IMG/VR virus record: IMGVR_UViG_3300047649_000011
Coordinates: 1 to 59,472 of that record
Direction: 5' to 3' (one strand)
Origin: a virus
Lineage: Duplodnaviria; Caudoviricetes
DNA length: 59,472 bases
Part shown: in pieces, positions 5,963-55,603 of the stretch
How the letters are laid out: every line of letters starts with the position of its first letter
Position numbering within the stretch: position 1 is the stretch's first letter
Notes under the pieces: model-generated
Told to the model about the DNA's origin: nothing
The model's input: the letters and a program-made list of their open reading frames with translations, nothing else
Database searches by the model: none
Made by a program: the position numbers and the translations under genes

Positions 5963-7237
5963 TTACTGCAATGTAGGCGTATAATCGTCTACAGCAGCAG
6001 TACATACAGTAACGCAGCCAAAGTCTTCACCGTTGAAGTTAGACTTAGCTACACCGTATATAATTCCAGTACAAAACCCGGTACTGTTCCCATAATCAAT
6101 AGTGACATGGTCTTCTACCCAGTTTGGTTCTCTAGCCACGGCCATACAACCAGCCTGTGCGCCAAGGAACAACGCAGAGCCAACCTGAGTACCATTAAGG
6201 CCACTATTAGACACAGCAACTTTATCATGAGTATGAATAACAACGCCCATGTAAACACCAGCACAACCGGAGAATATCGGGTTGTCCATTTGTCTCCACG
6301 CGGCATTAGACTGATTGGCAGCAATCCAAGTAGGATCATCTTGTAGGTCACGTTCTTGATTGGGATGAATAACCATAACGAAATATTTACCGCCGTTAAT
6401 TTTAACAGGGCGAAGTTTGGACCTTGCACCAAGATACCTGACAGCAGAATATGTCGAACCAGCAGCCGAAGTAAGCCACTTAGCAGCACAAACTAAACTT
6501 GTAGTAGACGATATCTCGGTTACATAGTTTGCTTGTGTCCCAATAGTAATCAGATCGCCAACTTGAAAATCATTAGTGAAGTTTGTTCCTGAACCAGTTA
6601 CGATATTGCTCCACTGAGTAGTAGTAACAGTGCCACCAGAAAGTGACAACGCTTTAGCATTACCAGCTAACGTAGCTTTACGCTTTGCCTGAGAAATAAG
6701 GGCACAACTCATTTTATCACCGGGCTGGATAAGAGAAACGCTCGCTCGATTTCCAGCCGTAACTATCCGATTTGGTGAAGGATTAGCCGACATAACAGTA
6801 AAGAAGTTTTGGTCAATTAATTCTTCTGCCATCCATGTAGTAAGCAACGAATGAGCGGCAGTTCGTAAATCAATCTGCGTTTTCTGTTCATCCATTTTGC
6901 CAATAAGTTCAATTGATTTCCGGTATTGGTCAACAGTAACAGAAAAACTCATAGGGGCCATTGGTTCTTCATTACCACGCGCTCGATTATCGCCAGTAAT
7001 AGCCGGGCCAATAAGTTTAGCCATTAGCGGTATAGTAACTTGATCACCAGCCGCTTTTTTTAGATCGGTATTTTTATCGATAATAAAATCAGGACCGTTA
7101 CCGATAAACTTAGCCCACCACAATTCATCCTGAGATGAACGCCACAGTTTACGTCCCCAGTATTGTTGTACAAGAGCGGGGTCTGTAGCAATTGAAGTTT
7201 TTGCAAATAATTGTAAATCAAAGTTTAGTTTGTACAT
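5963..7237 (-). CDS. Major capsid protein, N4 gp56 / DUF4043-like
   Basis: DLKKAAGDQVTIPLMAKL.G, GNEE, VIHPNQERDL, NPIFSG..G.Y.GVVIH, ALFLGAQA motifs; N-terminal LQLFA. Confidence 0.85.
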   Translation of the reverse strand: MYKLNFDLQLFAKTSIATDPALVQQYWGRKLWRSSQDELWWAKFIGNGPDFIIDKNTDLKKAAGDQVTIPLMAKLIGPAITGDNRARGNEEPMAPMSFSVTVDQYRKSIELIGKMDEQKTQIDLRTAAHSLLTTWMAEELIDQNFFTVMSANPSPNRIVTAGNRASVSLIQPGDKMSCALISQAKRKATLAGNAKALSLSGGTVTTTQWSNIVTGSGTNFTNDFQVGDLITIGTQANYVTEISSTTSLVCAAKWLTSAAGSTYSAVRYLGARSKLRPVKINGGKYFVMVIHPNQERDLQDDPTWIAANQSNAAWRQMDNPIFSGCAGVYMGVVIHTHDKVAVSNSGLNGTQVGSALFLGAQAGCMAVAREPNWVEDHVTIDYGNSTGFCTGIIYGVAKSNFNGEDFGCVTVCTAAVDDYTPTLQ

Positions 7238-7253
7238 AAATTACACCTCGTTT

Positions 7254-8714
7254 TTAGGTCCTAGGCCATTCGCCTCTTTTACCCGCAGTTTCAAGATAGA
7301 GTCGATATTGTGCGGGTATTTGCTCGAACATTTCTGAAGGACCGTCTAAATATTTTTTAATTTTTTCTTGCGTCCAAGCATTGCTTGCCGTACTACCAGA
7401 CGGGGGAATATTATGGTTTCTAGGCAAGTTTTGAAGTGTTTGAAGCTTTTTCTGTGTTGCAGCAACAACGTTATTAGCAGGTTCTGTATTAGCAGGCTCC
7501 GTAGAAAAAGAATCAACCTGCTCCAGTTGTGCTGGTTCAGGTTGAGATTGTGAAGCGATCTTTTGTAGGCCAAGATTATAACGGCACATTTGCCAAAACG
7601 TTTTTACGTTAAAATCATCTTGGGGGGTTGGCTGACCGAATTTGTTAGGCTCTTTATATGCCAGCCGATAGAACGCGTTCGAAATAATTTCTTTCTGGTC
7701 AGGTGGCAAAGCAGCAATTTGTTTATCCGCATATTGCAAAAGTTCAGGCGTATCAGCTTGTGCAGATTCCTGTTGCCACCAGTCACGAAATGAAGAAACA
7801 GTTGTTTGTACGCGTTCCTGTTCCTTGCGTTGTTTAGCTTGATCTTCTTGAAACTTAACCTCGTAACGTCTGTTAATATCACTTTCAAGCCTTGTAATCG
7901 CTCTTTGATCAGCTAATACGCCGGCAGAGTCTTCAAAAAAATCGGTGCGTGGATCGCGTCGATACATTTTTTTGAATTCATCCAATGCCTGATTTTCAAT
8001 TGCATCCATATACACCATTCCGGGGTGCTGGGGTGCTTGTACTTGCTGTCCAGACTGCTGTGGCTGTGTCGGAGTCTGTGCGCTTTGTTGTGGCGAAAAT
8101 TGGATAGGCGCAGATTGGGGCGGTTGAATGGCCGGTGGAATATTTTGCGGTACTTGGTTATTAATCTGTTGCTGTAAAAATGGTAGACTTGTTGCCGGAG
8201 TAGGCACTGTTGCTGACGGTTTGGATAATTGCGCCATCTGTTGTTTTATGGCTTCAATTTCCTGTTGCCAAGCGGCTTTTTCTTGCTCACGTTCTTTTTT
8301 GATCCGTTTATTTTCCTCGCGCACTTCATGCAGCGCGACATTTAAGTTTCCTTTTTGTGCTACAGGTGCTGTGGTTTCGCCAATTGGTGCATCTTGTGCC
8401 GGTTCGGCAGGTTCTACACCTTCACTGGGTTCTTCTTCGCTTGATTCGCTGACTGGTTCTCCTTCTGGTTCTTCGGATGGTTCCATATTAGATTCTTCTT
8501 CAGTTACAGCCTCATTTGATTCGGGGTTAGGCGATTCCCCGGATGAAGTGGAATCTTCGGGTTCATCCTCTTTAGCTAAATGCTGATTATAAACATCTTC
8601 AGCAATTTTAGGGTCCATGTCATTACCAAAGTTATTAATTAAATCTTGTTTGTCTTCGGGTGGAATTTCATCGAATTTGACTCTTTGTTTACGTGCGAAT
8701 AATTGTAAGTCCAT
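7254..8714 (-). CDS. Capsid scaffolding protein
   Basis: Likely start ATG 8714 (MDLQLFARK) after CAGGAG; acidic/coiled-coil, ALHEVREENK motif; immediately upstream of capsid. Confidence 0.75.
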   Translation of the reverse strand: MDLQLFARKQRVKFDEIPPEDKQDLINNFGNDMDPKIAEDVYNQHLAKEDEPEDSTSSGESPNPESNEAVTEEESNMEPSEEPEGEPVSESSEEEPSEGVEPAEPAQDAPIGETTAPVAQKGNLNVALHEVREENKRIKKEREQEKAAWQQEIEAIKQQMAQLSKPSATVPTPATSLPFLQQQINNQVPQNIPPAIQPPQSAPIQFSPQQSAQTPTQPQQSGQQVQAPQHPGMVYMDAIENQALDEFKKMYRRDPRTDFFEDSAGVLADQRAITRLESDINRRYEVKFQEDQAKQRKEQERVQTTVSSFRDWWQQESAQADTPELLQYADKQIAALPPDQKEIISNAFYRLAYKEPNKFGQPTPQDDFNVKTFWQMCRYNLGLQKIASQSQPEPAQLEQVDSFSTEPANTEPANNVVAATQKKLQTLQNLPRNHNIPPSGSTASNAWTQEKIKKYLDGPSEMFEQIPAQYRLYLETAGKRGEWPRT

Positions 8715-8851
8715 AATGTTGCTCCTGCGTTTAACGCCCACGTGGCGATAACTTAACCTGTACGCTCGGTTAGCCGCGAAACATATCTTTAGCCCGATAT
8801 GAAGGCGCATAAAAATACCACCCGTTAAGGTGGCTATGTAAAGCGAGAGGA

Positions 8852-9250
8852 TTAATCCTGATCGCTTAAAGGTGGTAAATTAGTTTCTTTTAAAACAATA
8901 GGACCAAGCCTAGTTGGTTCTTCTACAATTGTCCCTGGATCTGGTCCTGGATCGCCGGATTCAGGTTCCAGTTCCGGTTCTGGCAAATCAATCCTATACT
9001 GGTCAATTAATCCCATTGCGTGTAAGGATAGCGCAACATCTTTCCATACGGTTATTGATGCAAGTGTGTTATTATCCCAAAATGGTTCCTTTAATTCTTT
9101 AGCTAGAACATCGATATACTGGTTGATAACCGATTCAGCCTTTTTCTGTAAATCGATAAAAGTAGGATTGACTTTTTTAGCACCTGAAGGTTTTTTCTCA
9201 GTTGTTGCTGGCTTTACAATACGGGTGCGGGTTGTTTGTTTCCTTTCCAT
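8852..9250 (-). CDS. Hypothetical protein
   Basis: ORF with RBS in head module. Confidence 0.55.
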   Translation of the reverse strand: MERKQTTRTRIVKPATTEKKPSGAKKVNPTFIDLQKKAESVINQYIDVLAKELKEPFWDNNTLASITVWKDVALSLHAMGLIDQYRIDLPEPELEPESGDPGPDPGTIVEEPTRLGPIVLKETNLPPLSDQD

Positions 9251-9332
9251 TGATAATCATTCCTTCCTAACTTTTATGTAAAAAAATAAAGGACAGGCAC
9301 CTTATAAGTGTCCATCCTTTATTAGCTACGAA

Positions 9333-9488
9333 TTAATATTCATAGCGAGTAGAAGCTCTCCGACGACGACGAGCAGGAGCCCGACGAGCAGGAGCCTTTC
9401 CACCAATAACGTGATGCTCTTCATGATGAATAATGTGAACAGTGTGTCCTGCTTTGTGGGTAGTGCGTTTTCTAGTTGCTCCGTACAT
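9333..9488 (-). CDS. Small His/Arg-rich basic protein (51 aa), not in ORF track
   Basis: AAGGAGGT RBS; MYGATRKRTTHKAGHTVHIIHHEEHHVIGGKAPARRAPARRRRRASTRYEY. Confidence 0.7.
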   Translation of the reverse strand: MYGATRKRTTHKAGHTVHIIHHEEHHVIGGKAPARRAPARRRRRASTRYEY

Positions 9489-9592
9489 ATAAATGTACCT
9501 CCTTGTGCGGGTTTACCGCAGGTAGTCAGTTTTTGATAGCGAGGTACTGCTAAACTCTTGTGCGGGGCCATAAGGCCAGCCGACTTTCTTGC

Positions 9593-9770
9593 TATATAGA
9601 ACAGGTTGATTCATACAATACGATTAAAATATCGGCTTCATAGAGCCTTCCCGGACTCAACTTCTTGGCAGGAGTCTACTCAACGCTAACGGAGTTATAC
9701 TCAACGTTCGGAGTTTATGCGGGTGATTAACCGGAGCTATGCTCAAAATCGTGTGACCTGTTTCTATACA
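9593..9770. ncRNA. Candidate structured ncRNA (multi-branched, three repeated bulged hairpins)
   Basis: Closing stem TATAGAACAGGT/ACCTGTTTCTATA, inner ACGATT/AATCGT and CCCG/CGGG, three ACTC-AA-..-GAGT hairpins; intergenic. Confidence 0.55.
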
Positions 9771-9771
9771 T

Positions 9772-19700: not shown

Positions 19701-19729
19701 TTGACATTCAAAATTGATTATGATAGTAT
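19701..19729 (+). promoter_or_regulatory. SigA-type promoter of ART cassette
   Basis: TTGACA-17-TAGTAT with extended TG. Confidence 0.7.
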
Positions 19730-19797
19730 TAAATCAAGATAACGACACGGCAACGGTCGATCACATAGATAGCAAAAGCAAAAGGGAGTTGGCAAAA

Positions 19798-20319
19798 ATG
19801 TTAATTGCTTATCACGGTAGCCAATCGTCAACAGCAATAACTACTTTTGATAGTGGCACTGATCATCAAGAATTAAGCCGCGATGAAGAAAACGGCACAA
19901 TGTCAATTGGCACTTACTTCAGCAGCGACTATGATACAGCACTGGGTTACGCAAATGGATCATTTTATACTTGTCAATTAGATATCGCCAACACGCTTGA
20001 TTTGCGGACTCCCGAAGGTGCAGAAATTGCCGAAGAATTTGTCAACGATGCCAAAAATGAATATGAATTATCTTGCGACTTATTTGATGAGGATGGATAC
20101 ATCGCAACTCAATTACAAAAAGGTTTCGGCAGTTTTTCAGTAGCTTTTGATCAAATGGGTAGCGATGTAAGACAAGTATTAAATGCAATTGCCGAATATG
20201 CTCAATCTGCCGGTTATGATAGCATAATTTTTGATGACGAAAGTCGCGAAGGCCAATCGATATCTTATATAATTTTCAACACAGATCAAATTGAAATCTT
20301 GGAGGTTACTGCTACATGA
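19798..20319 (+). CDS. ADP-ribosyltransferase-fold protein (ART-PolyVal-like)
   Basis: AYHGS, G.YFS, A.GYA, GYDSIIF, YIIFN.DQI motifs; ATG 19798 after AAGGGAG. Confidence 0.65.
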   Translation: MLIAYHGSQSSTAITTFDSGTDHQELSRDEENGTMSIGTYFSSDYDTALGYANGSFYTCQLDIANTLDLRTPEGAEIAEEFVNDAKNEYELSCDLFDEDGYIATQLQKGFGSFSVAFDQMGSDVRQVLNAIAEYAQSAGYDSIIFDDESREGQSISYIIFNTDQIEILEVTAT

Positions 20320-26747: not shown

Positions 26748-27980
26748 TCAATTTCCGCTATCGCCGCTGAAAAGCGATAGCATGCGCATGGTGTCAGCAG
26801 ACTGATTTGTCGGAAGTCCCTGCAGTGCATGGAGACAATAATCGTCGTTGATTACCTGGCAGTTTCGTCTAAGCGCCTTGTACTCGTTGTACTGCTGACG
26901 GTATCGGTAGCTGTCGCCAAACACGTTCCACGCGGCCTTTACCAAATGCGGTTCAAATGGCCGTATCTTTTCCAAATCTTCTATCGCTTTCGCTGATATA
27001 GAGCATCCACAGCAACCTGTGCGCGTCAGGCCGTATACCTCATAGGCGTCCGAATATCTGATTTTGTAGTAATTTTTGTACCACTGCTTATCCGCGTTCG
27101 ATACATAATACAACGGTCTGAGCCTATATTTTCCGTCAGCTGTTGCGGTAAAACACATGGATGTATTATCTTTGCGTGGGACAGACCTCATTCCACCCTC
27201 GTCCCGACGCTCTCCCGTGATGATCATATCAAATGACTTTTGTGCACTGTGAGCTACTTGTTTTTTGCAGTAATTGCAACATTTGTCGCTGACCTTGAAA
27301 GGAATCGGGTTTTCAATGATGAAGTCAAGCATATATTTTGACGAGCCGATGACAAGCTGGATGTCCGGTCGTGGCTCCCCTGCGGAATTGCACCCGCACA
27401 GAAAGTTAATTGTTGATTCACACTTCGGATAACGTTTTTTAAGCTCTGCCCGCTTTGCTGCCTTGTCCTCTGCGTCTGCATATTCAGCGGCTATTGACAG
27501 CGGAATGTTTTTCTTTTGGACACCCTCTAAGCCGCTCGACATAATCTTTGAAACAAACGGCAGTCCATATTCCCTTGTGGCCTGTACTATGTTCTTTTTG
27601 GGTCGATGTTCGGCAATTGTAACGCCGTATAGTTTCGCAGTTTCCCGGACGTGCCGTTTGATTGCCTCCATCTCAAGACCGGTGTTAAAAAAGCAGTAAT
27701 TAATAGGCGGTAGATCAAATGTTTTACGCACCGTCTCGATCAGGTGCAGCATGATGTCGCTGTCACTCCCGCCAGAATATGAGCAGATTGCATTTGGGTA
27801 CTGAATCAATCTCTTCACGATTATACTTTGTATGGCCGAGAATTTGGCTGGCGCATTAAAATCCGCGTATGCGGGTCTGTCTGTGTATACTTTGCTTTTG
27901 TATGCGCGGTTCATTCCGTAACTTACCTCAGCTATCTGAACTTTGTCCCGGTTCCCGAAAAGCGTATGCTCCATCAGCAT
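26748..27980 (-). CDS. PAPS-reductase-like (PP-loop) protein
   Basis: SYSGGSDSD, NTGLE, CC.YCKK, GERRDEG..R, RTGCCGC; possible starts at 27980 or 27914. Confidence 0.85.
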   Translation of the reverse strand: MLMEHTLFGNRDKVQIAEVSYGMNRAYKSKVYTDRPAYADFNAPAKFSAIQSIIVKRLIQYPNAICSYSGGSDSDIMLHLIETVRKTFDLPPINYCFFNTGLEMEAIKRHVRETAKLYGVTIAEHRPKKNIVQATREYGLPFVSKIMSSGLEGVQKKNIPLSIAAEYADAEDKAAKRAELKKRYPKCESTINFLCGCNSAGEPRPDIQLVIGSSKYMLDFIIENPIPFKVSDKCCNYCKKQVAHSAQKSFDMIITGERRDEGGMRSVPRKDNTSMCFTATADGKYRLRPLYYVSNADKQWYKNYYKIRYSDAYEVYGLTRTGCCGCSISAKAIEDLEKIRPFEPHLVKAAWNVFGDSYRYRQQYNEYKALRRNCQVINDDYCLHALQGLPTNQSADTMRMLSLFSGDSGN

Positions 27981-28048
27981 TTCACCATCGCCCTCTTCAA
28001 CACTGCCGCAAATCCCTTTTTGCCGGCGCTTCTGTTGCTGTTGTCTTA

Positions 28049-28321
28049 TCATGTTGTAGCCGCCTTGATCTTATCTAACTCAGCTTGCCAAGCCATTATG
28101 CGCTCGTCCATTTCTTTCTGACCGGGCGTTGGCTCTGGTTCCGGTTCTGGATCGTCAGTAGACCATATAACTTCGCAGTTTGTCTTCACGTCAGCTGGGC
28201 ACGTTACATATCCCAAGCTGTAATCTGGCTGGACAATCTTAAACGGCCTACCATATTTGTCTGCCATACTTCGAGCTATGTGTTGCCAGTGTTTTAAATC
28301 ACGGCTTATGTCTGCGCTCAT
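28049..28321 (-). CDS. Hypothetical protein
   Basis: Coupled ORF. Confidence 0.5.
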   Translation of the reverse strand: MSADISRDLKHWQHIARSMADKYGRPFKIVQPDYSLGYVTCPADVKTNCEVIWSTDDPEPEPEPTPGQKEMDERIMAWQAELDKIKAATT

Positions 28322-41881: not shown

Positions 41882-43063
41882 ATGAAGACAATTAAAGAAA
41901 AGAAAAAAAGTCAACGCGATGACGGAAGATTCGTAGTAACCAAAGTGTTTAATGGTAAAAAGAAATATTTTTATAGTCCCATTTCAAAAAAATACGCAGA
42001 AAAACAGCGTGATGAATATGAAGAATCCTTAAAATCAAAGCCAAAAAATTATAAAGATATTACATTATCGGAGTGGCTTGACGAATGGCTTATCAATGTA
42101 AAGCAAGATAATATATCTGATAAAGCGTTTCAAAGTTATGAAAGTAATTGTCGTGTGCATATCAAACCCTATCTAGGTGGTCAAAAGTTGTCAGATTTAG
42201 AAATACCTCTTATACGAAGTTTTTTAACTTATTGTAAAAATAAAGTTGTTTGTCGAATGAAAAAACCAACGGAAGAAGATTTAAAAAATGCAAAAAAAAT
42301 AAGTGCCAGAACATTACAGTATATTTACGTTACACTGAACGCCGCACTTGAACAGGCAAGAAAAGATAAAATCATCTTAGAAAATCCATGTGATACAGTA
42401 GAAAAGCCAACAGTTAAGCCGTCACCGATAAAAATATTTACAGATAAAGAAAAGATTAAGCTATTAAACATGGCACAAAAGACAGATATAGAAATGCATA
42501 CTATGATTGTACTTGCGTTAGATACAGGGGCACGGTTAAGTGAATTTTTAAATTTAAAGTGGTCAAAAGTCGATTTACAAACTGGAAGAATAGTAATAGA
42601 TCAAGCTACAGAGCAAACCAAAGATGAAGGTGCCAAAGAAGCGTCGACCAAAAATGCAGCATCAATAAGGGCAATAAAGTTAACCCAGGAATGCTTAGAT
42701 ATATTAGATAAATATAAAGAAATACAAGATTCGCAAATTAAAGAATATGGTACCCATTATATTGATAACGACTATGTGTTTGCCAAAAAAGATGGTTTAC
42801 TTATTCCCAACTATGAAATAAGTAAACGGTTTAAAAAAATAGCATTAGCGGCAGGATTAAGGTCAGATGCACACTTTCACGAAACTAGGCACACATTAGC
42901 CACGGAATTAATTGAAATGGGAGTAAATCAATTTAAAGTACAGGCTTTACTTGGACATGCTACTCTTGATATGACTAAGAGGTATACTCATTTAAATGTT
43001 GACAGTCAGGATGAAATCATCAATAAGCTAAATAAAAAACGCAGTAGATCAAAAAAGTCTTGA
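41882..43063 (+). CDS. int: Tyrosine integrase
   Basis: TGARLSE, HETRHTLAT, LLGH....MT.RY catalytic motifs; arm-binding N-terminus. Confidence 0.95.
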   Translation: MKTIKEKKKSQRDDGRFVVTKVFNGKKKYFYSPISKKYAEKQRDEYEESLKSKPKNYKDITLSEWLDEWLINVKQDNISDKAFQSYESNCRVHIKPYLGGQKLSDLEIPLIRSFLTYCKNKVVCRMKKPTEEDLKNAKKISARTLQYIYVTLNAALEQARKDKIILENPCDTVEKPTVKPSPIKIFTDKEKIKLLNMAQKTDIEMHTMIVLALDTGARLSEFLNLKWSKVDLQTGRIVIDQATEQTKDEGAKEASTKNAASIRAIKLTQECLDILDKYKEIQDSQIKEYGTHYIDNDYVFAKKDGLLIPNYEISKRFKKIALAAGLRSDAHFHETRHTLATELIEMGVNQFKVQALLGHATLDMTKRYTHLNVDSQDEIINKLNKKRSRSKKS

Positions 43064-50329: not shown

Positions 50330-53300
50330 CTATTGACCAAAAAGGGACTTCCTAATGGTGTTATATTTCACTCGATCATCAGGTGTAGCCCCTTTCTTTA
50401 TTTTATTAGCTATTTTTTTAATCACAAGCTGTTTTAACTGTGCTTGTTCTTGTGGAGTTCCGGCCTTATATATTTCAAGCGCATCGTCAATGTCCATGTT
50501 GTGAATTTGTTGCTGTAAAGGAGTCATTCCTTTTAATTCGTTTAAATGAGTTGCTTGTGCTTTGCTGATTGCACCAGAATGTAATGCTTGTACAAGACTA
50601 GTAGTATTGCCACTTTGTAGGTCACGCCTAATTTTGGTTTCAAGATCAGATGTGTTGGCTTGTGCTGTTGTCTTGCCCTGCGCTTCGCCGAATCTGCGTT
50701 GATTAATTTCAGTAGCTAATTGTTCAGCATCTGTTTTATTAATGTCATGAGGAGCAGGAGTAACACCAACCATAGGTAAAGCCTGTTTTAAAGAAGTAGG
50801 AACAAATTTATTAATAAACTCTCTGCCAAGATAGTTAGGATTAAGATACCCTAAAACTGTAGTAGGCTTAGGATTATCTAATGTTTTATTTTCTGAGTCT
50901 TTAATTTTTTGCAATCCTTGTGAACTAAAAGGGACTACTTGGCCAGCTAAGTATTTGCCAACTTCTCCTGCTTTCTGCACTAACGTGTCAGCAGGATGAT
51001 AAATTTCTTTACCAAAATAATCCTTGTTACTGTACATTTCAGCCAATGTTTGAAAAAACGGATTAAGTTTACTGGATCCGTTTTCAACAAGTGCATGTCC
51101 TAAACCGTGCTGCCCCGCCCTATGTGCTACTGCGTATACATCTTTTGCATATGATGGCAGTGAAACACGTTCGGCATTCCCGTTTTCGTCTGTACCACCG
51201 ATTCTAGGAAAGAAATAGTCACGCCAATCTTTAGGATTCTGACCAGTTGCAAGGCGTGTGATAATGCTGCCAGTAACAACGGTAGACAGAGTTAATGCTG
51301 CTAGGTAAGATGTCCTATGGCTAAATTCCATAGGCTTACCTCTCACTAAGTCAATTGGCATTGCACCAAGGTCAACTAATCCCCCGCCAAGTTCACGCCA
51401 TGTGCCTAAATTCCAACCTACTGAGCGAGTACCAAGCATTAGACCGTCTTTTAACATCTTATTCCAAAATAAATTATCATAGACAAGTTGTCCTAGCCGA
51501 TTATCTACACTATCCCATACCTTACGTGCAGATTCGCGAATTTGATCATGCGTCATATTCGGATTTTTCTTTAACTCGTATTCCATCATAGAAGCTGCAA
51601 CGCCCAATTTTTGCCGAGGTACAACTTCTTCCATGATGATTCGAGGTATCGTTCTAATGAAGTTCCACGGTAAAATTTGTTTAGCCGCCCATGCGCCGGC
51701 CGTTCCATAATTGCCATTATTCATGTTAGCTAAAGTATCTTTCATTTCTTGTGAGAATCGTTGTTCACCAGTTTTAGCATAAAACGAATCCATTCTTGCT
51801 CTAGCTCCACCGCTCGACAATGCATCCATGATTTGTGTTACTTCTCCACCTTGACTTCCTGGCTTATACCATTCTTTAAGGTATTTACTACCTTTCATAG
51901 CTGTTAAAACAGGTGCTGCTAATGGTGTTGCTGCTTCAATAGTAGATTTTAAAGCTCCTCCTGCAAATTGTCCGGCAGTTTTTATATTACCTTTTCTTAG
52001 TTCGTTTGTTGCTGTAGAGCTCTGTTTCATAGCAAGTGCCAATTTTGAAACCATCGTATCGTAAGAAGTGAAACCTAGATGGAAAGCACTTATGCCAAGC
52101 TGAAATTGGTTAAGTTGATTTCCTGCACTTCTAGCCATGTCATATAGTCCATTTCCTCTAAGTCCGGGAGACAGGTAATTGTTAAGTAGTTTTGCTGCAT
52201 CTGGATGAGCCCAAAACCTACCACCATCTCCTACTTGCGTTCCTACCGGCACCCAGTCGGGATGAGCAGAAGGTCTAGCATTCGAAAATTCACCTAATCC
52301 GTTACTTTTTAACTCATTTTCAACTTTATGAGCCATGATATACTTATCCATTTCGCGAATTTTAAGTAATGCTAGATCAATAGGATTGTTTGTAACAGGC
52401 TGTAACGGTCTTCCTATACGTGAATCAGGCGTTTGCGCGGCTAATGATTCAGCATCTGCTTGATTCGGGAACGATTGAATCATATTATTATCTTTGTCAT
52501 ATACACGCCAACTAAGACCATCATCAGTAGTCGGTATTGTCCGCTGTTTTGTAAATGCTTTGGAACCTTCTAACGGCCTTTTACCAGTCCAACCAGCAAA
52601 ATCCATTTCTGCTGCATTAGGGTCTTTCCATATGTGAGGGAAATAGTTGTCAATCAAAGTTTGAAGCTTGCCAGTTCCTAATTTGCGGACTTCTTCTACA
52701 CGTTGATCAAAAAGAGCTTTTAAAATCATTGCCGTAGGGCGTAATTCTTTTGGAATGTCTTGTATTCTTCCGTGCTCATAGTCACTAGTAAACTTAATAG
52801 CTTCTGTCTCTGGCACTTTGTCGAAATACATTCTAGTTTTGTGCATAGCATCTTCGGCAATATCATATTTTCGTGCCATTTCAGACATATTTTCACGCAT
52901 TGACCGTCCAGCAAGCCCTGCTTCATCCGATACAGAAGCAGCAGAAAATGCTTGGCGAATATCGCGAAATGCTTTCTTTGTTGAGTCATAAATATCATTT
53001 AACATTTGAAACTTTTGTTGTTGGTTAGCAAACAACTGTTGCGCCACTTGCTGAGACATTGGTCTTTCAGGCGCGACTAAATCAGGATGTTCGCTCGGTA
53101 TTACTGATTCATTGAGCTGTCTGGTTGTAGGCTGCTCATGCTCGGCATTTGCGGTGTCGCCGGAGTTGATGGTGCTTGCGGTGTTGGTGATAAGCTTGGC
53201 ATTGACGATAGGTTCATTAGGCTCTGACCTGATCCCATTGGCGATGATGTTCCCGTTCCCCGTCTGCCCCGTCCCGATTTTGGCATTCCTGGCATTTTGG

Positions 53301-55603
53301 GAGTTTTCAAGCGGGATGATCGGAGATGTGGCATTTTGGGGATTCGGGGCTTCTTGATTCGCGTTGACAGTCGTTTCATTTGGCATTACTCCCTTTGGTT
53401 CATAATAATCATTTACTACTTTCTTTACATCATCGCGAGACGTTAACTTACCGGCATCTTGCAAATTTCTTAATAATTGCTCAACACTTTTATTTCCCAT
53501 TCGATTTATTTTTTTGCCATTTTGTACATTTTTCCACATTGAATCAATAAAACTATCATTTACAGCATTACCTAATCCATTGAATACATTAGCAAGCCCG
53601 GTTGTATCATTTGGTTGTTTCTGTAAATCTGGATATTCTGCTAATACTTCCGGTGGTACTGGCTTTCCTTCTGACAAAGCCTGTTGAACAATAGCTCTAT
53701 GACTTACATCAAAATTTTTAAACTTGTCTAGGCCGTTTTTATTGAAGTAAGAGTAAATTGCGGGTAATCCTTGTTTTAATCGTTCAGGGTTCTTGTAATA
53801 ATCATCAAGCAACGCCTGTGCGTTTTCTTCCCACGTAGGAATATCGTTTTTCCCTTGCGTCTCAGGATCAGTGTAATCATGAGGGCGATTTTCTTTTAAA
53901 TAATTTTGGACTGATTGTTCACGTGCAGGAGTATATACCTTATCCCAATTTGGCAAATGATTATCAATAATTACGTGCCTAAGTTCATGGGAAAAAACGT
54001 CATCAGAGTCAATACCACGTTCGCGATGGACAGTTTTTGTTTCTACATTTGCGCCGGCAGCAACACCTGATTTTTCGTTAGGAGTAAACTCAGTAGACCA
54101 ATTAGGAGCTAACTGATTAAGGCGATGAGTGTCGTAATCTTCATTTGTCATCTGCCATAATTGTTTTGTTGGTTCAGCGGGATGTTCATCTGACTTCGTT
54201 GCTTCGGCTTGTGCAATATTTGCGGATTGCTCTGGCTGATTTGTTTTTTGCTCGTTTGCTTCAATCGCTTCTTTTGCCGTTTGTAGCTCGGTTTCTGGTA
54301 CGGCGGTAGAAACGTTAGGAATAGATTTTTTCGCTTCTCCTGTGGCTTCTGGTGAAGTATTAGGAGGAGTTGAAGTGGCTTGCTTTTCTTCGGGAACATT
54401 AGCTGGAGCTTTCCAATTATCTAAAGGGCTTGCAGAGGTTTCGGTGGCAGTAATAGCTTCGGGGGCCGAAGGTACTTCTAATTTATTAAACTGCCTATCA
54501 ATAGCAGTATCGGCAATTTTGTTTGCTGCTGATTTAAGTGGATGCTCTAAGATAGCAGCAGGCATAAAAACTTTTTGCCATAATTTTGTAGGGTCATTTG
54601 CTATTTCTCCTACAAATTGACCCGGCTGTGTTATAACTTCTTTTACTTGGTCAACTATAGGATTAACAAGCGTTTCCTTGGCTGTATTAGCAAATGCTTC
54701 TAAAGGTGATGGCTGTTTAGACTTGCCAGACCACATGTCAAGCGGTGAAGCTGAACCTGTGGCCTTTGAATTCTTCTCGTAGGATTGTGCTACGTCATGC
54801 ACAAGATTAGGCAAATAAGCCACGCCTGCCGCTGCCCTTATTGGAGCAGGTACAAAAGGCGTAATAGCCAGATTGCCAGCAGGAGTGCCAACAATGTCTC
54901 TGTAGGCTTGTGACGAAGTTTCGGTTTGTTGAGGAGTATTCTTCGCATTAGGATCATTCCAAGCATTCTCTACTGTTAAAGGTGCTTGACCAGTATTTTC
55001 TCTTGCTTTGTTTGCAGCTATATTTGCCGCTTGTAGGTTGGCGATATCTTCTTTCGCTGTATCAACGTAACGCTTTCCTGCTGAAATAACATTATCAATA
55101 GTAGGAACGCCTGTATAAGTTTCTTGTTGCTTGTCAGCTGGTGAATTATTACCGATCCATGCAATGTCGTTGTCAGGATTTAACCCTGAGTCTCTAAATT
55201 GCTGAAGTTCACCAGATTTTTCGTAATAGTTTACTTTTTGTTGACGTTCGGTAGAAGTTGAACTGTTGGCAATATCGGCTAGTACGTTCTGATAACGGTC
55301 GTTCCACGCTGTTACTGCATCAGTATTATCTGTTTGCGTCGAAGATTGATTTTGCTGTAAAGATGGTTCGGGGAATGAAGCTGCCTGTTGATTATTATTT
55401 GCACCGCCAATATACGCGATATCATTATCGGGGTTCAGTCCCGAATCTCTAAATTGTTGTAATTCACCGCTTTTCTCATAGTAATTTACCTTTTGCTGTC
55501 TCTCAGCATCTGAAGAGCTATTAGCTATGTCGGCTAATACATTATTATATCTGTCTTGCCATGCTTGCACCGCATTATAATCAACATCAGCCATTAAGTT
55601 CAC
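50330..55603 (-). CDS. Large ejection / polyvalent protein (1757 aa)
   Basis: Last of three ejection-type genes; HELRH zincin motif; LPD38-like C-terminal region. Confidence 0.7.
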   Translation of the reverse strand: MNLMADVDYNAVQAWQDRYNNVLADIANSSSDAERQQKVNYYEKSGELQQFRDSGLNPDNDIAYIGGANNNQQAASFPEPSLQQNQSSTQTDNTDAVTAWNDRYQNVLADIANSSTSTERQQKVNYYEKSGELQQFRDSGLNPDNDIAWIGNNSPADKQQETYTGVPTIDNVISAGKRYVDTAKEDIANLQAANIAANKARENTGQAPLTVENAWNDPNAKNTPQQTETSSQAYRDIVGTPAGNLAITPFVPAPIRAAAGVAYLPNLVHDVAQSYEKNSKATGSASPLDMWSGKSKQPSPLEAFANTAKETLVNPIVDQVKEVITQPGQFVGEIANDPTKLWQKVFMPAAILEHPLKSAANKIADTAIDRQFNKLEVPSAPEAITATETSASPLDNWKAPANVPEEKQATSTPPNTSPEATGEAKKSIPNVSTAVPETELQTAKEAIEANEQKTNQPEQSANIAQAEATKSDEHPAEPTKQLWQMTNEDYDTHRLNQLAPNWSTEFTPNEKSGVAAGANVETKTVHRERGIDSDDVFSHELRHVIIDNHLPNWDKVYTPAREQSVQNYLKENRPHDYTDPETQGKNDIPTWEENAQALLDDYYKNPERLKQGLPAIYSYFNKNGLDKFKNFDVSHRAIVQQALSEGKPVPPEVLAEYPDLQKQPNDTTGLANVFNGLGNAVNDSFIDSMWKNVQNGKKINRMGNKSVEQLLRNLQDAGKLTSRDDVKKVVNDYYEPKGVMPNETTVNANQEAPNPQNATSPIIPLENSQNARNAKIGTGQTGNGNIIANGIRSEPNEPIVNAKLITNTASTINSGDTANAEHEQPTTRQLNESVIPSEHPDLVAPERPMSQQVAQQLFANQQQKFQMLNDIYDSTKKAFRDIRQAFSAASVSDEAGLAGRSMRENMSEMARKYDIAEDAMHKTRMYFDKVPETEAIKFTSDYEHGRIQDIPKELRPTAMILKALFDQRVEEVRKLGTGKLQTLIDNYFPHIWKDPNAAEMDFAGWTGKRPLEGSKAFTKQRTIPTTDDGLSWRVYDKDNNMIQSFPNQADAESLAAQTPDSRIGRPLQPVTNNPIDLALLKIREMDKYIMAHKVENELKSNGLGEFSNARPSAHPDWVPVGTQVGDGGRFWAHPDAAKLLNNYLSPGLRGNGLYDMARSAGNQLNQFQLGISAFHLGFTSYDTMVSKLALAMKQSSTATNELRKGNIKTAGQFAGGALKSTIEAATPLAAPVLTAMKGSKYLKEWYKPGSQGGEVTQIMDALSSGGARARMDSFYAKTGEQRFSQEMKDTLANMNNGNYGTAGAWAAKQILPWNFIRTIPRIIMEEVVPRQKLGVAASMMEYELKKNPNMTHDQIRESARKVWDSVDNRLGQLVYDNLFWNKMLKDGLMLGTRSVGWNLGTWRELGGGLVDLGAMPIDLVRGKPMEFSHRTSYLAALTLSTVVTGSIITRLATGQNPKDWRDYFFPRIGGTDENGNAERVSLPSYAKDVYAVAHRAGQHGLGHALVENGSSKLNPFFQTLAEMYSNKDYFGKEIYHPADTLVQKAGEVGKYLAGQVVPFSSQGLQKIKDSENKTLDNPKPTTVLGYLNPNYLGREFINKFVPTSLKQALPMVGVTPAPHDINKTDAEQLATEINQRRFGEAQGKTTAQANTSDLETKIRRDLQSGNTTSLVQALHSGAISKAQATHLNELKGMTPLQQQIHNMDIDDALEIYKAGTPQEQAQLKQLVIKKIANKIKKGATPDDRVKYNTIRKSLFGQ
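53101..53379 (-). CDS. Putative overprinted 92-aa basic, Pro/Met/Ser-rich protein
   Basis: Alternative frame with AAGGGAG RBS; local GC and codon anomaly in host frame. Confidence 0.5.
   Translation of the reverse strand: MKRLSTRIKKPRIPKMPHLRSSRLKTPKMPGMPKSGRGRRGTGTSSPMGSGQSLMNLSSMPSLSPTPQAPSTPATPQMPSMSSLQPDSSMNQ

Follow-up and report, generated by a model that had tools for sequence, protein, structure and literature searches.

A candidate structured leader RNA with iterated units between the portal and scaffold-like genes of a phage

The element and its surroundings

We analysed an entire IMG/VR virus record (IMGVR_UViG_3300047649_000011, 59,472 bp; hereafter the window), which carries direct terminal repeats and represents the genome of a phage that is temperate, judging by its integrase and anti-repressor genes. 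The element under study occupies a 369-nt gap between the stop codon of a P22-like portal gene and a small open reading frame (ORF), and the neighbouring genes are all encoded on the minus strand. It was initially annotated, from the stretch 9593-9770, as a free-standing RNA of about 175 nt with three tandem bulged hairpins. We found that this stretch probably forms the 5' domain of a longer structured leader (about 300-330 nt), which extends on the minus strand from about 9770 or 9806 to about 9447-9477; the element is thus about twice as long as first described, and the proposed free-standing RNA becomes the 5' half of a leader that reaches into the small ORF. For comparison we used one locus with the same layout (L002) and four near-identical loci with part of it (L003-L006). 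The features are listed in sense order, with letters as on the sense strand.

12246-13541: large terminase gene, upstream of the portal gene
9858-12038, minus: portal gene, P22-like (Pfam PF16510, E 1.5e-104)
9807-9857, minus: 51-nt module after the portal stop codon, 47 of 51 nt identical in L002
9812-9835, minus: hairpin CCGGG...CCCGG inside the 51-nt module (predicted fold)
9771-9805, minus: T1, terminator-like hairpin (9805-9777) with six U (9776-9771), directly upstream of the closing helix P1 (terminator scan)
9756-9768, minus: 5' arm of P1, UAUAGAAACAGGU on the sense strand, pairing with 9595-9606
9734-9744, minus: hairpin GAGC-AUA-GCUC, with a further CUCCG in its 3' arm (sense probability 0.82-0.83)
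9699-9714, minus: unit 1, ACUCCG-AA-CGUUGAGU (as a separate hairpin 0.00 sense, 0.07 antisense)
9678-9695, minus: unit 2, ACUCCG-UUAG-CGUUGAGU (as a separate hairpin 0.00 sense, 0.02 antisense)
9654-9676, minus: unit 3, GACUCC-UGCCAAGAA-GUUGAGUC, a 5-bp hairpin (0.93-0.94 sense, 0.03 antisense), absent from L002
9634-9647, minus: hairpin GGCUC-UAUG-(A)AGCC (0.93-0.95 on both strands), absent from L002
9595-9606, minus: 3' arm of P1, ACCUGUUCUAUA on the sense strand, with an equivalent arm in L002 and in L003-L006
9489-9594, minus: conserved leader of about 105 nt, 93 of 106 aligned columns identical to L002 (88%)
9584-9560, minus: leader hairpin (consensus fold)
9552-9546/9530-9523, minus: leader helix that carries a both-sides change, with GUACCUC (9547-9541) in its loop, resembling an anti-Shine-Dalgarno (anti-SD) sequence
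9520-9506, minus: leader hairpin (consensus fold)
9504-9498, minus: Shine-Dalgarno (SD) sequence AAGGAGG
9498-9493/9488-9483, minus: hairpin containing the AUG, predicted in the window and in L002
9333-9488, minus: small ORF, 51 aa, Arg/His-rich, with the strong AAGGAGG ribosome-binding site
9280-9323, minus: T2, terminator-like hairpin (9323-9285) with a U run (9284-9280), 3' of the small ORF (fold z -3.56)
8852-9250, minus: ORF of 132 aa between the small ORF and the scaffold-like ORF
7254-8810, minus: scaffold-like ORF, 518 aa
5963-7237, minus: capsid gene (PF13252)

The closing helix P1 has 12 bp and one bulged A in the window (-12.1 kcal/mol on the sense strand, 149 nt enclosed), 12 bp and one bulge in L002 (-11.6 kcal/mol, 87 nt enclosed) and 10 bp and one bulge in L003-L006 (-9.3 kcal/mol, 75 nt enclosed), where its 5' arm overlaps the portal stop codon. 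When the arms are anchored on their common CAGG/CCUG core, the window has U-A next to the core end where L002 has C-G, the adjoining pair goes from G-C in the window to G-U in L002, and the five distal pairs are UAUAG/CUAUA (window), AUAGU/ACUAU (L002) and UAAUG/CAUUA (L003-L006). That P1 appears from this comparison to be kept as a helix while both arms change and the enclosed length varies twofold is an argument in its favour. Across the helix-closed domain, the window and L002 share 57% identity. In folded stretches of 186 and 335 nt, the pairs of P1 reach probabilities of 0.79-1.00 on the sense and 0.84-0.95 on the antisense strand.

The same helix had been drawn in the initial annotation from the arms TATAGAACAGGT (9595-9606) and ACCTGTTTCTATA (9756-9768), and it is borne out by these probabilities and by the pairing kept across letter changes. 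Every other string listed there was also found in the window. Both of its side hairpins (9634-9647 and 9734-9744) were recovered in the 186- and 335-nt stretches (0.82-0.94 sense, 0.94-0.95 antisense); at the place equivalent to 9734-9744, L002 has GAGC-GAA-GCUC, and a loose end of a variant RNA contig from run X12 (described below) shows the hairpin too. The inner parts of the drawing fared worse. The helix ACGATT (9620-9625)/AATCGT (9747-9752) is predicted on the plus strand only (0.88, versus 0.06 on the minus strand), and neither it nor the helix CCCG (9650-9653)/CGGG (9720-9723) has a counterpart in L002. Folding does not favour the three tandem bulged hairpins: those at 9678-9695 and 9699-9714 reach 0.00-0.07 on either strand, and the inner CG/CG pair proposed for the copy with a 'tt' loop would enclose 2 nt, which is sterically impossible. 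Folding of both strands thus returned the closing helix and the side hairpins and did not return these two separate hairpins. On the plus strand, a 196-nt stretch folds more stably than its shuffles (z -3.32, matched by 0 of 200), with a weaker excess on the minus strand (z -1.73, matched by 13 of 200). We regard the closing helix as real, along with the side hairpins and the clustering of the repeats, and the arrangement as three tandem hairpins as not supported.

The repeats are clustered beyond what composition would give. The pattern CTCC-N(1-13)-GTTGAG occurs three times in the window, always on the minus strand and inside 58 nt (9656-9713), and shuffled 59-kb sequences hold 0.46 +/- 0.80 copies on both strands together, with 2 of 100 shuffles reaching three. 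There are three units in the window, two in L002 and at least two in the X12 variant, and they keep the letters CG...CGUU, which pairing within the stems does not explain. In the sense minimum free energy (MFE) structures of the window and L002, two neighbouring units form one nested hairpin (units 1 and 2 in the window); in the two copies of L002, the inner pairs would enclose 2 and 1 nt. Because segments of GAG and CUC alternate along the units, each could pair with either neighbour. By their letters the units look like alternative-pairing elements or repeated protein sites. No further copies of the element were found within the phage genome. One unit junction has a 13-nt complement in the portal gene (10918-10930, minus strand), which the portal gene of L002 lacks and which is probably due to chance.

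Between P1 and the small ORF, the leader is far more alike in the window and L002 than the coding sequence on either side (88% identity, versus 68% in the small ORF and 51% in the final 300 nt of the portal gene; between the portal proteins, identity is 47%), and because of this difference selection there appears to act on the RNA or DNA letters rather than on a protein. The first 10 nt of the small ORF are identical in L002, and the conservation ends about 10 nt into the ORF. The RNAalifold consensus of the leader (29 pairs) contains one both-sides change, from A-U to U-A, and four single-side changes, all G-C/G-U or U-A/U-G and so tolerated on the sense strand alone. GUACCUC in the window and GUAUCUC in L002 (via G-U) are each complementary to GAGGUAC of the SD region. 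The MFE structure of L002 pairs this anti-SD with the SD, and that of the window forms the AUG hairpin instead; as modelled, the leader would have two mutually exclusive ways of hiding the start site. A kept complement of the SD and an alternative fold, the sequence-level marks of an SD-masking leader, are thus both present.

The small protein has homologues in L002 and L003-L006, and four database proteins match it; it matched no family in Pfam or PHROG, and the ESM Atlas gave no usable match. The phage also encodes a tRNA-His (GUG anticodon; 14057-14132, minus strand), and the 51-aa ORF contains seven His codons; a tRNA lies upstream of the terminase in L002 too. It is conceivable that the supply of His codons by the phage tRNA is linked to this ORF. 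The anticodon arm of the tRNA (ACUCCGG) resembles the units over only 6-7 nt, which we took as coincidence.

On the upstream side, the 51-nt module may be a processing or termination signal. At the place of T1, L002 has a longer hairpin with a U-rich tail and different letters, and a comparable hairpin with a U-rich tail follows its small ORF; T1 and T2, or their equivalents, thus flank the unit in both phages. No sigma-70-type promoter was found in the intergenic region on either strand, and letters that resembled sigma-54 or T7 promoters by eye did not hold.

Relatives, transcripts and strand

Relatives of the element are few. We found no match to 9300-10300 by blastn among 50,697 phage records, and a scan of IMG/VR with the single portal protein gave 0 confirmed relatives. 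A portal-profile scan of IMG/VR returned 56 loci, of which L002 alone has the units and L002-L006 alone have the small protein; in most portal loci the next gene starts within a few bases of the portal gene. The portal proteins of L003-L006, near-identical to one another, are 43% identical to that of the window. Where a source is named, the closest portal proteins come from Negativicutes genomes, the top relative being just 50% identical. L002 repeats the layout of the window (portal, hairpin module, terminator-like hairpin, helix-closed domain, leader and small ORF), and its helix-closed domain carries two CUCCG-N-CGUUGAG units. In L003-L006, a gap of about 130 nt keeps the closing helix, with a different interior and no long leader.

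What appears to be a fourth, divergent version of the leader was detected in an RNA contig of run X12 (339 nt, depth 14.9). It matches 9460-9557 with 9 substitutions and 6 gaps, was also aligned at 9671-9688 and lacks the CCCG strand segment, and its loose end shows the repeat unit as CTCAACG-NN-CGGAG.

Other searches added little. Of three exact-pattern scans of IMG/VR, one was empty, one returned L002 and a chance coding match (L058), and the third, with the tandem-unit pattern, returned L002 and L112, which is a chance match inside an ORF of a 406-kb contig. A 17-mer scan of metagenome contigs gave 41 loci, none related by blastn (L068 shares a 26-nt hairpin only), and portal alignment against genome contigs gave three distant loci. 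BLAST of 9330-9860 against 401 genomes of the class of genome G001 found 20-35-nt matches only, and alignment of the small protein against IMG/VR gave 0 confirmed relatives. A covariance model of the leader found just its two training sequences in 100 sources; in 151 genomes its single match (E 0.006) lies inside a coding sequence and was rejected.

Twenty public sequencing runs contain the stretch or part of it, and six of these are recorded as RNA. We examined Logan contigs of the RNA runs X10 (a peat metatranscriptome) and X12, which belong to one study, and of two DNA runs; the RNA runs X14-X16 and X20 contain small shares of it. For X10 we aligned 489 contigs, 349 with at least 99% identity. 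Within 9447-9806, the longest X10 contig listed measures 89 nt, as expected of extreme depth in such assemblies. Summed word depth is 300,603-429,281 over 9448-9717, 193,333 over 9718-9771 and 14,299 over 9772-9825, and one 630-nt contig covers 8816-9445 at a depth of 1,970. The portal bins with cover (9988-10400) lie at 6,596-75,010; the bins at 9826-9987 are without contig, a gap that supports no conclusion. Adapter junctions, which mark fragment ends, were found at 9447, 9457, 9461, 9477, 9643 and 9806. Contig depth and adapter junctions together delimit an apparently abundant RNA, with approximate ends:

9447-9806, minus: apparent extent of the abundant RNA in X10

Over 9448-9771 the depth exceeds that of the next gene by a factor of about 100-200, a ratio that is suggestive only. 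Such a step is hard to ascribe to DNA carry-over because the contigs are short and lie wholly inside the compared regions. At face value, an RNA of about 300-330 nt, with its 5' end at about 9770 or 9806 and its 3' end at about 9447-9477, seems to reach a far higher level than the neighbouring RNA.

The initial annotation leaned towards the plus strand, antisense to the genes. Our comparison turns this round, and we consider it quite likely that the RNA is the minus strand, sense to the genes. The G-U changes in P1 of L002, in the leader and in L005 (where a pair of a second helix goes from G-C to G-U) would be A-C mismatches on the plus strand, which favours the sense strand; owing to G-U, P1 of L002 is worth -11.6 kcal/mol on the sense strand versus -7.5 on the antisense strand. 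In L003-L006 the 5' arm of P1 overlaps the portal stop codon, which points to an RNA read from the portal strand, and the element starts at that codon with no space for a separate promoter. All five low-coordinate adapter junctions of X10 have one orientation, of the read-2 read-through type. In the usual deoxyuridine triphosphate (dUTP) libraries, which we assume for X10 as the typical kind, this orientation would correspond to minus-strand RNA.

Known RNA families and other genes of the phage

Searching 9000-10400 with cmscan against Rfam 15 (4227 models) at E up to 10 gave no match that overlaps 9425-9989, and a scan of the whole window, L002 and L004 at the gathering thresholds gave tRNAs only. 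The absence of a recognised family thus agrees with what was first noted. With no Rfam match, with pairing kept through letter changes among homologues and with a transcript apparent in X10, the two outcomes that could have counted against the element appear to come out in its favour, and the feature is more interesting than a chance fold.

Several known RNAs resemble the element in part. Like the packaging RNA (pRNA) of phi29, it is a phage RNA of about 170 nt, multi-branched, linked to the head and portal machinery and apparently abundant, but it sits inside the late genes and runs into an ORF. No Phage_pRNA match was found, the portal is P22-like and the large terminase is ordinary, so that a phi29-type pRNA was rejected; nor did we find pRNA-style interlocking loops, as the loop letters differ between the window and L002 and no complementarity is kept. 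With CsrB/RsmZ and ToxI RNAs, the element shares iterated short units, a copy number that varies among relatives and, apparently, high abundance. A CsrA/RsmA sponge was dismissed on the grounds that the sense units are without GGA and that no CsrB/Rsm model matches; the GGA of the antisense strand falls within the 3' arm of the stem instead of a loop. A ToxI-like RNA was dismissed as well, given unequal units of 16-23 nt instead of tandem repeats of 34-36 nt and no ToxN-like gene downstream. Sites of the lambda nut/boxB type do not fit units with 7-13-nt loops and 3-5-bp stems located in late structural genes; the small Arg-rich protein encoded downstream gives only a loose resemblance to an N-like arginine-rich antiterminator.

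RNase III cuts intercistronic processing sites in the polycistronic mRNAs of phages T7, lambda and SP82. As in those sites, a conserved long-range helix brackets a segment of a late operon and may define the ends of a stable RNA, but P1, with 10-12 bp and a bulge, falls below the roughly 20 bp usually needed. In X10 the P1 3' arm is flanked by similar depth on both sides, and neither P1 arm has an adapter junction.

The position invites comparison with P22. Post-transcriptional control of scaffold synthesis has long been known genetically in P22-like phages, and to our knowledge no RNA operator has been defined for it. A passage of 10.1101/2022.12.13.520362 reports that the P22 scaffolding protein autoregulates its own translation, which makes an RNA operator at the portal-scaffold position plausible by analogy. 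The element likewise lies downstream of a P22-like portal gene and upstream of scaffold and capsid genes, a place where one would expect head-assembly proteins to be controlled post-transcriptionally, but here the 51-aa and 132-aa ORFs intervene between the RNA and the scaffold-like gene.

The closest likeness is to stabilising 5' untranslated regions (UTRs) of Firmicutes. In the Bacillus subtilis hbs mRNA, as described in a passage of PMC5737220, a structured 5' UTR and ribosomes that initiate at a strong SD control the access of RNases, and 5' stabilisers such as STAB-SD are named in a passage of the review PMC3997798. Such UTRs share with our element a structured leader that ends in a strong SD, a 5'-terminal structure that would leave no free 5' tail, long-range pairing within the leader and, as far as the X10 contigs suggest for our element, a leader fragment that outnumbers the body of the message. 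They differ in that the element is a phage intercistronic unit between two terminator-like hairpins, and its iterated CUCCG/CGUUGAG units and multi-branch domain closed by P1 are without counterpart in the UTRs treated there. An IMG/VR survey (PMC10690425) reports more than 10,000 candidate structured RNAs; its main text mentions neither portal nor scaffold, and its motif lists sit in the supplements. In its probable mode of action the feature comes closest to an SD-masking structured leader, and no described RNA family matches it.

The remaining genes gave further observations. The phage encodes a Prp-type cysteine protease (14737-15039, minus strand; PF04327, E 9.4e-19), and the 518-aa scaffold-like ORF has MDLQLFA at residue 33, its L002 homologue starting with MNKQFDLQLFA; the stretch of L002 noted along with these two genes is 6193-6525. 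We take MDLQLFA to resemble the L27-type N-terminal motif that Prp cuts in Firmicutes and in staphylococcal phage 80alpha. By this analogy, the sequence suggests that the real start of the scaffold-like ORF may be an internal Met and that its N-terminus may be processed by the phage-encoded Prp. A serine recombinase (Resolvase domain) is present besides the tyrosine integrase, together with a PAPS-reductase-like protein (phrog_424); coordinates for the recombinase, integrase and PAPS-reductase-like genes are given jointly as 16905-17492 (minus), 41882-43063 (plus) and 26748-28052 (minus). The ORF at 19714-20319, on the plus strand and thus opposite to its neighbours, contains an ART-PolyVal domain (ADP-ribosyltransferase of polyvalent proteins, E 1.4e-09). 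The 1757-aa ORF at 50330-55603 (minus strand) matches no PHROG family at E up to 0.001 and is, by its position, probably a tail or tape-measure-type protein.

A possible leader acting in cis and competing explanations

We tentatively read the element as a cis-acting leader that controls translation or stability, and give this a rough probability of 0.45. The unit would run from T1 through the P1-closed domain with three to four iterated units, the leader of about 105 nt and the 51-aa ORF to T2, and the leader would influence, in cis, the small ORF and perhaps also read-through towards the head genes. With P1 at its 5' end (or T1, should it begin at 9806), the RNA would have no free 5' tail, which may slow 5'-end-dependent decay. 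The 3' half of the leader would mask the ribosome-binding site, either by pairing the anti-SD GUACCUC with GAGGUAC or through the AUG hairpin, and the iterated units would serve as alternative pairings or as several sites for a protein that shifts the balance of masking. Together these effects would set the output of the small protein and possibly that of a downstream head protein. The abundant species of about 300-330 nt would then be a stable, mostly untranslated leader fragment, with 3' ends 6-36 nt behind the base of the AUG hairpin (9483), as exonuclease stalling would give.

A number of points weigh against this reading. The covariation of P1 comes from three lineages and effectively six sequences, four of them near-identical, which is too few for statistics. 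In a 300-nt stretch (9476-9775) the pairs of P1 reach only 0.14-0.18 on the sense strand, versus 0.85-0.95 on the antisense strand, so that the thermodynamic support depends on the chosen ends. Free energies do not separate the strands, the window having its larger excess over shuffles on the plus strand and L004 giving z -2.06 for the sense and -2.82 for the antisense strand. In L003-L006, P1 and the small protein are present without the repeat units or the long leader, and the units are thus not required in every phage that has the small protein. Contig depth cannot rank genes, contigs give neither strand nor true ends, DNA may occur in RNA libraries, and the evidence for expression consists of the contigs of one study. 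No promoter-like site that would account for the 5' end lies between T1 and P1, and no terminator accounts for the 3' ends at 9447-9477. Finally, an excess of the leader over the ORF of 100-200-fold fits an RNA acting in trans or passive decay equally well, and no binding protein is known for the element.

It is doubtful, though better sustained than the other alternatives, that the RNA is an abundant phage non-coding RNA acting in trans, whose units bind several copies of a protein as a sponge or aid head assembly; the small ORF would then be a separate passenger, or the RNA would have two functions. The depth in X10 speaks for this, exceeding that of the adjacent coding RNA about 100-200-fold and that of the portal pieces 5-60-fold, as do conservation that ends close to the observed 3' end at 9477, a variable number of units as is typical of multivalent arrays, and the CG...CGUU letters kept beyond what stem pairing needs. 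Candidate partners would be, for example, the Arg-rich 51-aa protein, the scaffold protein or a host RNA-binding regulator. The initial annotation had proposed a multivalent protein-binding RNA (a sponge, packaging or antitermination element), which we treat as a hypothesis. However, no partner has been identified, the units hold no known protein-binding motif and, on the sense strand, no GGA, and neither pRNA nor CsrB/Rsm nor any other Rfam model matches. The absence of the units from L003-L006 and the dependence of the abundance on one study count against it as well, and an RNA that includes the SD and AUG of a conserved ORF is more simply read as a 5' UTR. We consider it rather unlikely that the element founds a new class of abundant phage non-coding RNA, produced from a structural operon and acting in trans as a sponge or as a cofactor of assembly or packaging.

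It is also unlikely that the element is a passive by-product, that is, a structured spacer whose RNA is a nuclease-resistant decay intermediate of the late transcript and whose units are a short tandem duplication without a role of their own. Structured leaders and riboswitch fragments are commonly over-represented in transcriptomes. The missing promoter-like site, an A/U-rich linker between T1 and P1, 3' ends scattered over 30 nt (9447-9477) as exonuclease stalling gives, and the poor conservation of the P1 interior in both letters and length would all suit such an origin. Against it, the 88% identity of the leader exceeds the constraint that a spacer needs, P1 is maintained through changes of both arms in three lineages, and the unit letters are kept in the window, L002 and the X12 variant.

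An antisense RNA from the plus strand, which would start in the small ORF, cover its ribosome-binding site, end at about 9770-9806 and repress that ORF and downstream genes by pairing, is improbable. The plus strand does fold better, by its z score and by its MFE (-88.8 versus -77.3 for 9476-9775), the ACGATT/AATCGT helix is predicted there alone, and contigs by themselves give no strand. Every single-side helix change, however, leaves a G-U pair on the sense strand and would put an A-C mismatch on the plus strand, with P1 of L002 weakened accordingly; no plus-strand promoter-like site was found upstream of 9447-9477 and no plus-strand terminator at 9770-9806; and both the uniform adapter junctions and the position of the L003-L006 element next to the portal stop codon indicate the minus strand. 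A DNA-level element, either operators or activator sites serving an internal late promoter or the termini of an insertion like a miniature inverted-repeat transposable element, is highly improbable: 12-nt terminal inverted repeats do surround a variable interior, the downstream arm ends in TATAG/TATATAG, loosely like a -10 region, and an internal promoter would make sense where head genes need more product than the portal gene, but the phage has one copy, the lack of further copies in IMG/VR beyond L002, in the 401 genomes searched by BLAST and in the 151 searched with the covariance model argues against mobility, the half-unit spacing of 1 to 9 nt is unlike rigid-dimer sites on duplex DNA, there is no sigma-70-type match, the G-U change in P1 of L002 is meaningful for RNA only, and the region itself lies at high depth in RNA contigs.

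Tailed phages make a few portal proteins and hundreds of scaffold and capsid proteins from neighbouring genes. The element, conserved, structured and apparently very abundant, offers a concrete candidate RNA at the portal-scaffold position, with defined parts in P1, the units, the anti-SD and the AUG hairpin and with a very small Arg-rich protein encoded beside it. Comparison alone would have missed this RNA because it has only two to three relatives, and metatranscriptomes can flag phage RNAs that comparative genomics by itself does not reveal. If the action in trans were true, the element would represent a new type of abundant phage RNA; if the leader acts in cis only, it would represent a new leader family for phages of Negativicutes-like hosts.

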